A stretch of DNA of 39,782 nt from a virus, in the IMG/VR virus record IMGVR_UViG_3300033407_000054, positions 1 through 39,782 of that record, one strand, 5' to 3'. Position 1 is the stretch's first letter, and every line of letters starts with the position of its first letter. The notes under the pieces were generated by a model. It was not told the origin of the DNA and did no database searches. It was given only the letters and a program-made list of their open reading frames with translations. Positions 30,876 through 31,906 of this stretch are shown one piece after another. A program made the position numbers and the translations under genes.

Positions 30876-30915
30876 ATAAAGAAATAAAGCAATAAACGCA
30901 TAAGGCAATAATGAG
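30876..30915. repeat. Tandem 8-bp array ATAAAGAA|ATAAAGCA|ATAAACGC|ATAAGGCA|ATAATGAG running into the parA start codon (candidate parC/parS operator-centromere)
   Basis: Five head-to-tail 8-mers read directly. Two TATTTATTTTAA boxes lie upstream at 30813-30824 and 30834-30845. Confidence 0.6.
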
Positions 30916-31657
30916 AAAAATTTGTGTGTCTCTAAGTAAAGGTGGGGTAGCTAAATCCACCTCAGCCGTTTCGTTAGCTCATGGACTTTCTATGAAAGGA
31001 AAGAAGACTCTTTTAATAGATAGTGATGACCAAGGACAAGCAGCCTACTTACTGGGAGTAAATCCCGAAGTAGGTCTAGCCAACGTACTACATGAAGAAA
31101 TAGAAGCTAAAGAGGCTATTTATAAGGCTCGAGATAACCTATATATACTAGCTGGGGATAAGACCTTATCGGGAACTAAAAGATCCATAGGACGAAAAGA
31201 CTTTGGGGCTGAACAGACATTATCAAATGCATTGGCTTCTGTAGAAGGAAAGTTTGATTTTGTGATTATAGATACATCTCCATCCTGGGATACTCTAACT
31301 ATCAACTCCGTATTCTATTGTAATGAAATCCTCATTCCCGTTTCTTTGGAAGTCTTGAGTTTAAACAGCCTTTCAGAATTCTTAAGAAGGCTTAATCAAG
31401 TTCTCCACTTCAAGCAACCTAATCAATTTGATCATAAGATAACCATTCTTCCTACGTTCTCAGATGGAAGAGTTAAAAAGTCTAAAGAGATTTTAGATAT
31501 ACTCGAAACCCACTATGCAAAGATGTTGCTTTCTCCTATTCGTTATTGTTCTAGGATATCCGAATCGGCAGCATTTGGCCAAACCATATTTGAGTATGCA
31601 CCTCACTCTAGGGGAGCTGAGGACTACAGTAAAATTATAACTGCGGTGATGAAATGA
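30911..31657 (+). CDS. parA: ParA/Soj-family partition ATPase
   Basis: 248 aa with the deviant Walker A SLSKGGVAKSTSAVSLA, then LLIDSDDQGQ and FVIIDTSPS. Confidence 0.8.
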   Translation: MRKICVSLSKGGVAKSTSAVSLAHGLSMKGKKTLLIDSDDQGQAAYLLGVNPEVGLANVLHEEIEAKEAIYKARDNLYILAGDKTLSGTKRSIGRKDFGAEQTLSNALASVEGKFDFVIIDTSPSWDTLTINSVFYCNEILIPVSLEVLSLNSLSEFLRRLNQVLHFKQPNQFDHKITILPTFSDGRVKKSKEILDILETHYAKMLLSPIRYCSRISESAAFGQTIFEYAPHSRGAEDYSKIITAVMK

Positions 31658-31902
31658 GAGAAAAGACGCCTGATATCATAGGACAATTAATGGGAGAAGG
31701 AATAAAGCAAGAAAGCAAGAAAGAAATAAAACAAGAAAGCAATAAATCCATAAAAGAAAAGGCGACCTTCAATCTTTCTAAATCTCTTCTTAAGGATCTA
31801 GAATACTTCTGGTTACGCATGAGACAGACAAAGAAGATTACAAAGACGGATATTGTAGAGGAGGCAGTTAGGGATTTTTTAAATAAAGCAATAAAGCAAT
31901 AA
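31654..31902 (+). CDS. Ribbon-helix-helix centromere-binding protein (ParG/omega-like partner of ParA)
   Basis: 82 aa, overlapping the parA stop. The C-terminal half (KATFNLSKSLLKDLEYFWLRMR...KTDIVEEAVRDFL) has a beta-strand, helix, helix RHH layout. Confidence 0.55.
   Translation: MREKTPDIIGQLMGEGIKQESKKEIKQESNKSIKEKATFNLSKSLLKDLEYFWLRMRQTKKITKTDIVEEAVRDFLNKAIKQ
31702..31757. repeat. Degenerate 8-bp / 24-bp periodic array inside the RHH gene (ATAAAGCA AGAAAGCA AGAAAGAA ATAAAACA AGAAAGCA ATAAATCC ATAAAAGA)
   Basis: Read directly. It encodes IKQESKKE IKQESNKS IKEK. Confidence 0.5.
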
Positions 31903-31906
31903 ATAT
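31883..31906. repeat. Tandem 8-bp array ATAAAGCA|ATAAAGCA|ATAAATAT across the stop codon of the RHH gene
   Basis: Read directly. It is the third intergenic-boundary copy of the ATAAAGCA array. Confidence 0.6.

Follow-up and report, generated by a model that had tools for sequence, protein, structure and literature searches.

The parA operon of the IMG/VR virus record IMGVR_UViG_3300033407_000054 raises the question of what a tandem array of 8-bp repeats does inside a gene. The gene encodes a protein of 82 amino acids, the presumed centromere-binding protein (CBP) that accompanies ParA, and the array is translated as part of it. The whole stretch of 39,782 nucleotides was analysed and is called the window below. 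Comparison of codon choice, repeat units and conservation revealed a DNA-level constraint on the in-gene array, which supports its reading as a DNA element and not a protein repeat. We judge it fairly probable that the locus serves a circular phage-plasmid as a self-contained partition cassette, type Ib-like in its make-up, and that the in-gene array is part of its centromere. The features of the cassette are as follows (ORF, open reading frame; HTH, helix-turn-helix; RHH, ribbon-helix-helix).

30876-30915, + strand: array A1, five units ATAAAGAA ATAAAGCA ATAAACGC ATAAGGCA ATAATGAG, the last running into the parA ATG (30911)
30911-31657, + strand: parA, encoding a Walker-type ATPase of 248 amino acids with the motif SKGGVAKST and without an N-terminal HTH extension
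31654-31902, + strand: gene of the 82-amino-acid presumed CBP, its start overlapping the parA stop (ATGA, 31654-31657)
31654-31698, + strand: conserved N-terminal peptide of the CBP, MREKTPDIIGQLMGE, residues 1-15, from family alignments
31702-31757, + strand: array A2, seven units ATAAAGCA AGAAAGCA AGAAAGAA ATAAAACA AGAAAGCA ATAAATCC ATAAAAGA, inside the CBP gene
31702-31757, + strand: linker of the CBP, residues 17-35, IKQESKKEIKQESNKSIKE, encoded by A2
31753-31882, + strand: probable RHH domain of the CBP, with the strand KEKATFNLS and helices 43-58 and 64-81
31883-31921, both strands: array A3, forward units ATAAAGCA ATAAAGCA ATAAATAT (31883-31906), then two inverted units (31904-31919)
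5181-5220, + strand: array A4, five units TTAAAGGA ATAAAGCA ATAAAACC ATAAAGAA ATAAAGCT

Three arrays lie on the same strand at 30876-30915 (A1), 31702-31757 (A2) and 31883-31906 (forward units of A3), and their consensus is ATAAAGCA. They stand where the initial annotation had placed them, as the sequence itself shows on reading, and each was called at period 8 by Tandem Repeats Finder. The annotation had missed the fourth array, A4, and the inverted units of A3. The exact 8-mer occurred 9 times in the window against 2.4 expected. A 16-mer dimer probe with at most 3 mismatches gave 14 matches against 1.26 expected, a number that was reached in 0 of 100 shuffles. All 14 matches were on the + strand; 13 fell in A4, A1, A2 and A3, and one was isolated at 32179. 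Units in 8-bp register were found at only four sites of the 39.8-kb window, of which A4 is one. This array lies over the stop of the ORF 4728-5192, about 190 bp before iteron-like repeats and 355 bp before a rep-like gene.

The columns of A1 were 89% invariant, compared with 38% at parA third codon positions (window and relatives L003 and L004). A1 is presumed to be both operator and centromere site. The forward units of A3 cross the stop TAA (31900-31902) of the CBP gene. Its inverted units on the minus strand are 94% complementary to A1 and hold the stop of a convergent Vut_1 ORF, and forward and inverted units together form the palindrome GCAATAAATATTGC at 31895-31908. Tandem ATAAAGCA contains TAA in all three frames, so any ORF reading into an array must end there. 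This holds for the ORF 4728-5192, for the convergent ORF of Vut_1 and for the CBP ORF itself, all of which stop within array units. The three units that had been pointed out across the CBP stop are correctly placed, and their position is not a separate oddity.

DNA-level constraint on the in-gene array

A2 is translated into the peptide IKQESKKE/IKQESNKS, and the codons used for this peptide differ from those of the adjoining coding sequence. In 19 genes, isoleucine was encoded by ATA in 49 of 56 linker codons against 119 of 415 in parA and the remaining part of the gene (P 1.5e-17), and serine by AGC in 36 of 63 linker codons against 92 of 526 elsewhere (P 6e-11); these pooled P-values overstate independence because the loci are phylogenetically related. 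AGC is the rarest serine codon in the window (62/732), and ATA is not its preferred isoleucine codon. The window linker was also compared with synonymous recodings drawn from the element's own codon usage. Fifty of its 57 bases fit the tandem consensus, compared with 41.0 ± 2.1 in the recodings (P = 5e-5). The linker thus fits the repeat better than 99.995% of the recodings, and it is at most one base short of the maximum that the peptide allows.

The departures from the consensus depend on the reading frame. A unit whose first base is a third codon position would, with ATAA, bring TAA into frame; such units had G at position 2 in 40 cases and T in 1. Units in the other two codon phases kept T at position 2 (46 and 49 cases). 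The G-for-T variant is restricted to the one phase in which T would create an in-frame TAA. Nearly half of the successive unit spacings (105/209) were multiples of 8.

Conservation followed the repeat and not the codon. Third codon positions of the linker were conserved at 0.70 and 0.59 in the two sets of close relatives that were compared, against 0.38 and 0.44 in parA, and second codon positions were less conserved in the linker (0.70 and 0.66) than in parA (0.87 and 0.96). Within the unit, positions 1-5 were kept and positions 6-8 were variable, and the period of conservation was 8 bp, not 3 bp.

The relative L031 (58% GC) has a different unit, CAGCAAAA/CGGTAAAA, and the strand of its CBP reads KVTFYLS instead of KATFNLS. 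Approximately 14 copies of this unit lie directly upstream of parA, in both orientations and in 8-bp register, and 7 lie in the linker of L031 itself. The total of 27 matches compares with 3.7 in shuffles, and the recoding test gave P < 5e-5. Three further relatives of 51-55% GC (L029, L033 and L037) have 8-bp GCAA-periodic linkers of 9-18 units, with P-values that are optimistic since the units were defined on the tested sequences. Another period-8 repeat in L029 (4236-4272, GCAGGTAG) has a different motif and was set aside. The common denominator of the arrays is a GCAA core once per 8 bp.

Codon bias, recoding, frame-bound variants, the 8-bp conservation period and the covariation of unit and protein in L031 thus point to the in-gene array as a DNA element. 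The same tests support the proposal of the initial annotation that an 8-bp DNA periodicity is imposed on the coding sequence.

The parA-CBP pair and its arrays in relatives

The call of the upstream gene as parA was confirmed by Pfam, which gave AAA_31 at E 3e-35 (from residue 1) and CbiA at E 3e-13. The protein has a deviant Walker A motif, a size in the range of 200-300 amino acids and no N-terminal HTH, which are the marks of a type Ib ParA. As in type Ib operons, a small partner gene follows directly downstream, a pairing that was found in 18 loci; ParA proteins of 57-94% identity always preceded the CBP homologue in these loci. The cassette was seen in more than 17 loci besides, for the most part on plasmids, phages and metagenome-assembled genomes of Chlamydiota. 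Short-period (6-9 bp) tandem repeats beside the operon also belong to the type Ib pattern. A1 and A3 flank the operon in this way, and the arrangement is kept in relatives. The Pfam search found no ParB-type domain at the locus, and its sites are 8-bp tandem units, unlike the pattern of an HTH/CTPase ParB with a 16-bp palindromic parS. Close homologues of the CBP were few, and a profile search extended the family, which comprised 389 clusters at the 90% level of identity and 699 at the 50% level. Each cluster is labelled 'hypothetical' and carries neither a name nor a Pfam domain.

Array runs of at least 3 in-register units were counted in the 18 loci. The gene strand had 38 of them and the opposite strand 1, compared with a mean of 3.6 and a maximum of 15 for 41 composition-matched permuted motifs. 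A stricter scan, which required at least 4 exact GCAA in a single 8-bp phase, asked too much to be informative. The arrays recurred at three positions, namely directly upstream of parA, in the CBP linker and at the CBP stop. Arrays precede parA in most relatives and often end in ...GCAATAATG. The sequence ATAAAGCAATAAGGCAATAATG upstream of parA is identical in five Rhabdochlamydia-type loci, although the surrounding upstream DNA is only 58% conserved. At the other end of the operon, most family members terminate in ...SNK[AT][IV]KQ followed by the stop (AGC AAT AAA GCA ATA AAG CAA TAA), which means that the ORFs of the family read into the array at the CBP stop.

A tblastn search with one family member against PLSDB found two Rhabdochlamydia plasmids and nothing else. 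In the two complete Rhabdochlamydia plasmids, arrays of at least 3 units were confined to the par locus, and the in-gene array was the longest. The few other arrays of this length on these plasmids are found immediately downstream in the par region. On the R. porcellionis plasmid, the in-gene array is the only one of at least 3 units, and several other loci have no array near par except the in-gene one. Not all of the most distant members show the feature: L038 has no convincing in-gene array and L039 only a weak one.

Some relatives show further repeats around the locus. L001 (IMGVR_UViG_3300047173_000096), a related 40-kb IMG/VR phage, has 8-bp arrays at 1126-1167, 3113-3139 and 3379-3423. 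These are three further gene junctions upstream of parA, each with the TAA of the gene before it, an AAGGA Shine-Dalgarno-like unit and the ATG of the gene after it. This layout suggests that the L001 arrays may also be operators or junction elements for neighbouring small membrane-protein genes. L010, L014, L016 and L019 carry inverted-repeat units (e.g. TTGCAATAAATATTGCC) about 60-100 bp upstream of parA; these are not direct arrays and resemble the A3 palindrome. In L032, 6.8 near-perfect 24-bp linker copies (IKPEGNKE x7) lie at 1630-1791, and a separate 24-bp tandem repeat of 5.4 copies with the same start AAAGGAATAA lies about 1 kb upstream (522-651). L024, from a bin labelled Acidobacteria, contains a CBP remnant at 5031-5216. 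The remnant encodes 61 amino acids, ends in VSNKTVKQ before its stop, lacks parA and lies beside a large leucine-rich-repeat protein; it may be mis-binned chlamydial DNA or a decayed cassette.

The partner protein, the proposed centromere and alternative readings

The CBP can be divided into an N-terminal peptide, a linker and a C-terminal domain. In the family alignments, R2 of the N-terminal peptide never varies and T5, P6, D7 and M13 hardly do, and AlphaFold2 predicted a short helix at residues 8-12. By its likeness to the tails of ParG and omega, the peptide is presumed to be a tail that contacts ParA and stimulates its ATPase. The linker was predicted to be disordered, with a confidence score (pLDDT) below 50 at residues 18-33, and this stretch coincides with A2. 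For the C-terminal domain, the AlphaFold2 monomer showed an extended segment (34-42) and two helices at pLDDT of approximately 80-88. Alignment of the CBP family profile with CopG by hhalign covered the strand and both helices with a probability of 64% (E 6e-5); the CopG sequence used was checked against PDB 1b01/2cpg. The fold of the C-terminal domain is therefore probably RHH, with moderate support from prediction. Two family members, P0130 (306 amino acids) and P0224 (296 amino acids), have three or four tandem C-terminal domains of this probable RHH type in one polypeptide. Pgp6, the product of the gene after ParA on Chlamydia trachomatis plasmids, was considered as an identity for the CBP and rejected. 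Pgp6 of pCHL1 has 247 amino acids and a UPF0137 match at 2.6e-55, and its hhalign probability against the CBP profile was 0.3%.

It is well known that RHH partition proteins bind short-period arrays, that an operon can have arrays on either side and that sites can be multiple and dispersed; in-gene centromeres are known for HTH ParB proteins. The arrays of the window are comparable in type to the RHH partition sites of TP228, pCXC100, pSM19035 and pB171; the initial annotation had named ParG and omega. The ParF-ParG parH/OF system of TP228 likewise combines a small Walker ParA with a small RHH protein that has a flexible N-terminal tail. Its sites consist of 20 ACTC boxes with AT-rich 4-bp spacers at an 8-bp period, in direct and inverted orientation, and serve as operator and centromere. 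The GCAA core with a TAAA spacer, the total of approximately 20 units and the inverted units of A3 are formally like the ParG box and its 4-bp spacer. There is no detectable sequence homology between the two systems. All TP228 boxes lie upstream of parF, whereas the arrays described here are also found within the CBP gene, over its stop and, at a distance of 14 kb, beside rep.

In pSM19035, the RHH protein omega binds short unspaced heptads at six parS sites and acts both as centromere binder and as global regulator, including copy-number control; at least 4 contiguous consensus repeats are required for ParA activation. Omega sites are also present at copS of this plasmid. The position of A4 beside rep parallels these copS sites. 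The period is 7 bp in pSM19035 and 8 bp here, and the omega sites are promoter regions, with none described inside the omega coding sequence. In par2 of pB171, the order is parC1-parA-parB-parC2 with repeat arrays on both sides of the operon. A1 and A3 bracket the operon in the same way, but the pB171 arrays are intergenic, with no known in-gene array or translated repeat. The CBP of pCXC100 likewise could not be related by homology to any known DNA-binding motif before its structure showed it to be an RHH protein, and it binds nine 9-bp head-to-tail direct repeats cooperatively. That system differs in its 9-bp unit and its single upstream centromere.

The precedent that had been cited for a centromere within the partner gene, the parS sites in spo0J/parB, holds in one respect. 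In these chromosomal type Ia systems, the centromere likewise lies within the coding region of its own binder. The site is a single 16-bp palindrome bound by an HTH/CTPase ParB of a different class, with no tandem array and no peptide repeat, so the likeness is one of analogy and not of membership. CopG of pMV158 is the best profile match to the CBP C-terminal domain; KEKATFNLSKSLLKDLE aligns with KKRLTITLSESVLENLE, and xSKTxIVExAL with LSKSAMISVAL. The probability of the match is just 64%, and CopG is a copy-number repressor of 45 amino acids without an N-terminal tail or a ParA partner. A literature search found no RHH-type system in which the repeat array lies in the gene of the binding protein and is translated with it, and likewise no description of the CBP family.

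The anatomy of the locus, the enrichment of the arrays, their layout as kept throughout a large family, the DNA-level constraint and the covariation of the unit in L031 are observations. To these we add the fold of the CBP, its binding, autorepression, ATPase stimulation and segregation, which we infer, and the following mechanism is proposed. The CBP would dimerise via its CopG-like RHH domain, and its beta-ribbon (K36, T38 and N40) would read the GCAA-type core once every 8 bp; the joint change of repeat unit and strand in L031 supports specific binding indirectly. CBP dimers would coat each array cooperatively. Occupancy of A1, over the 5′-end and start codon of parA, would lead to autorepression of the operon. 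The coated arrays, with approximately 20 units over A1, A2, A3 and A4, would form the centromere. The N-terminal peptide with its invariant Arg would stimulate nucleoid-bound ParA-ATP, resulting in equipartition of the prophage-plasmid copies; the invariance of R2 and the occurrence of the cassette on complete plasmids agree with such a role. A4 beside the rep iterons may be a second centromere, or it may link rep expression to the level of CBP. The disordered linker and C-terminal tail of the CBP would be translated centromere repeats, in which the DNA motif is selected and the resulting peptide (SNKxIKQE) is tolerated. The sole departure from the consensus that would be forced is T to G, where T gives an in-frame TAA.

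Several results weigh against this reading, in addition to the reservations about the P-values given above. The identification of the partner as an RHH protein, made in the initial annotation, stands on the CopG alignment and on the predicted strand and two helices; it was not joined by a significant database match. PDB sequence and profile searches with the CBP gave chance-level matches only, and Foldseek with both AlphaFold2 models gave no significant or usable match. Pfam scans of 18 and of 68 family members found no family above threshold. The best RHH matches in Pfam were 56B_RHH (E 0.017), PSK_trans_fac (0.021) and VapB_antitoxin (0.096), all below gathering scores, so that none of the curated families of the RHH superfamily (CopG/Arc/MetJ, Pfam RHH clans) was matched above its threshold. 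The hhalign comparison of the CBP profile covered only the FNL tripeptide of Arc and nothing of omega. A sigma-70 consensus scan of the + strand upstream of parA found no promoter, and its counts were not above those of shuffles. The Rep protein, searched against viral contigs as a check on the conservation of A4, had no matches. In addition, every third in-gene unit is an AG variant, and given that pSM19035 needs at least 4 contiguous consensus repeats, A2 is possibly a weak site.

The strongest of the alternatives is one that we regard as unlikely but worth keeping in mind. Only the intergenic arrays would be functional, and the in-gene and C-terminal arrays would be passive products of ORFs that grew over nearby repeats or recombined with them; gene conversion or slippage between arrays would keep these alike (concerted evolution), without binding inside the gene. 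Translated array units are also found at the ends of unrelated upstream ORFs and of the convergent Vut_1 ORF, which indicates that arrays can enter ORFs passively. The length of the linker and its number of units are highly variable, with seven perfect 24-bp copies in L032, as is typical of slippage, and the departure of every third in-gene unit from the consensus also fits a passive array. However, the in-gene array keeps its place at 35-50% protein identity and in GC-rich hosts, and it is the dominant or only array on some replicons (R. porcellionis, and several loci near par). The codons used in the window, which come within one base of the closest attainable repeat match, also argue against a passive by-product.

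It is improbable that the arrays are bound by the Rep initiator, by ParA or by a host nucleoid protein instead of the CBP, or that they serve mainly in transcriptional or translational control at gene junctions. A4 adjoins the rep region, the L001 arrays lie at three further gene junctions, and the fold of the CBP rests on prediction, all of which would suit another binder or a control element. Nevertheless, the arrays accompany parA-CBP whatever the neighbours, on phage, plasmid or chromosome, and Rep has separate iteron-like repeats of its own. The joint change of repeat unit and CBP beta-strand in L031 also speaks against another binder. A regulatory role would not exclude partition, since a dual role as operator and centromere is normal for ParG and omega.

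Tandem repeats with a unit that is not a multiple of 3 are possible contingency loci in coding regions. Very little speaks for a slipped-strand phase-variation switch or for the 8-bp periodicity as a side effect of A-rich codons and a selected peptide repeat (IKQESNK): the motif SNKxIKQE is recognisable in many members, but the choice of AGC and ATA is far from genomic codon usage, the 8-bp signal also occurs in genomes of 51-58% GC, and the linker has amino-acid changes as often as silent ones. Slippage by 8 bp as a means of phase variation was rejected, as 18 of 18 genes were intact, the units are too imperfect and a shift of +/-8 bp meets TAA at once.

The partition cassette with a translated centromere may extend well beyond this element. 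There is perhaps an even chance that this large and unrecognised family of ParA partners, with 699 clusters at 50% identity and mainly from Chlamydiota, owes its linker and tail to the translation of centromere repeats that are constrained both as DNA and as protein, and that parA-CBP is a two-gene, self-sufficient and portable cassette. The CBP is a candidate centromere-binding partner for ParA on Chlamydiota plasmids and phage-plasmids. A survey of chlamydial plasmids reported that they 'lack parB homologs' (PMC7846284); if the proposal is true, parA-CBP would supply the 'missing ParB' of environmental chlamydial plasmids. The locus would also be a natural case of overlapping codes, in which a putative protein-binding periodicity of 8 bp is laid on a reading frame and T gives way to G where TAA would arise. 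It suggests a way in which a DNA-binding protein can acquire a disordered tail from the sites that it binds. Synonymous recoding can part the DNA role of A2 from its protein role. A compact parA-CBP with a built-in centromere is a possible vector stabiliser for environmental chlamydiae, which are genetically hard to manipulate.

The phage-plasmid, its neighbouring genes and its probable host

An exact 127-bp direct repeat was found at the ends of the window (1-127 = 39656-39782). The terminal overlap indicates a circular, or circularly assembled, element of approximately 39.65 kb. The window encodes the tailed-phage proteins large terminase (TerL), portal, major head, major tail and tail fibre. 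Erf, a RecE-like exonuclease and RusA are also encoded. Genes of plasmid type are those of the Rep-like initiator, ParA, and a ParE-type toxin with a DUF6290 antitoxin. The element is a phage-plasmid, with phage structural and packaging genes and genes for replication, partition and addiction on one circle. The features outside the cassette are as follows.

5405-5465 and 5519-5534: iteron-like repeats AAAAATG(C/G)TAACA, 3-4 copies and an inverted copy (16 nucleotides, 94% complementary)
5575-6531: gene of the Rep-like (DnaD/Rep-like) initiator, with the iteron-like repeats upstream
31911-32573, - strand: gene of a Vut_1/YhhQ-type transporter (queuosine-precursor or vitamin uptake; E 1.6e-26)
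33181-33685, - strand: ParE/RelE-type toxin (PF05016, E 8e-11), with a DUF6290-like antitoxin ahead of the toxin

The region between A4 and rep, with its iteron-like repeats, is the probable origin of replication. Rfam and tRNA scans of the window gave no matches.

The closest DNA matches to the parA of the window were in two Rhabdochlamydia plasmids, and blastn against a phage collection gave no match. The relatives of the 82-amino-acid protein were nearly all from metagenome-assembled genomes and plasmids of Chlamydiota, with a few from Dependentiae. Because the parA matches and the relatives of the small protein are mainly from Chlamydiota, the host of the phage-plasmid is probably a chlamydia-like bacterium. 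To our knowledge, the phages known for Chlamydiota are mainly Microviridae.

A cluster of small ORFs on the minus strand (34036-35275) consists almost wholly of Gly-Ser-Gly-(Phe/Asp/Leu)-Gly repeats and had no family matches. These ORFs are built from 6-, 12- and 18-bp DNA repeats, including TCCAAATCCCGA x22. The toxin-antitoxin pair constitutes an addiction module 1.3 kb from the par locus. The Vut_1 gene is convergent to the par operon and is kept beside par in L003 and L004, with its stop codon in an inverted array unit.

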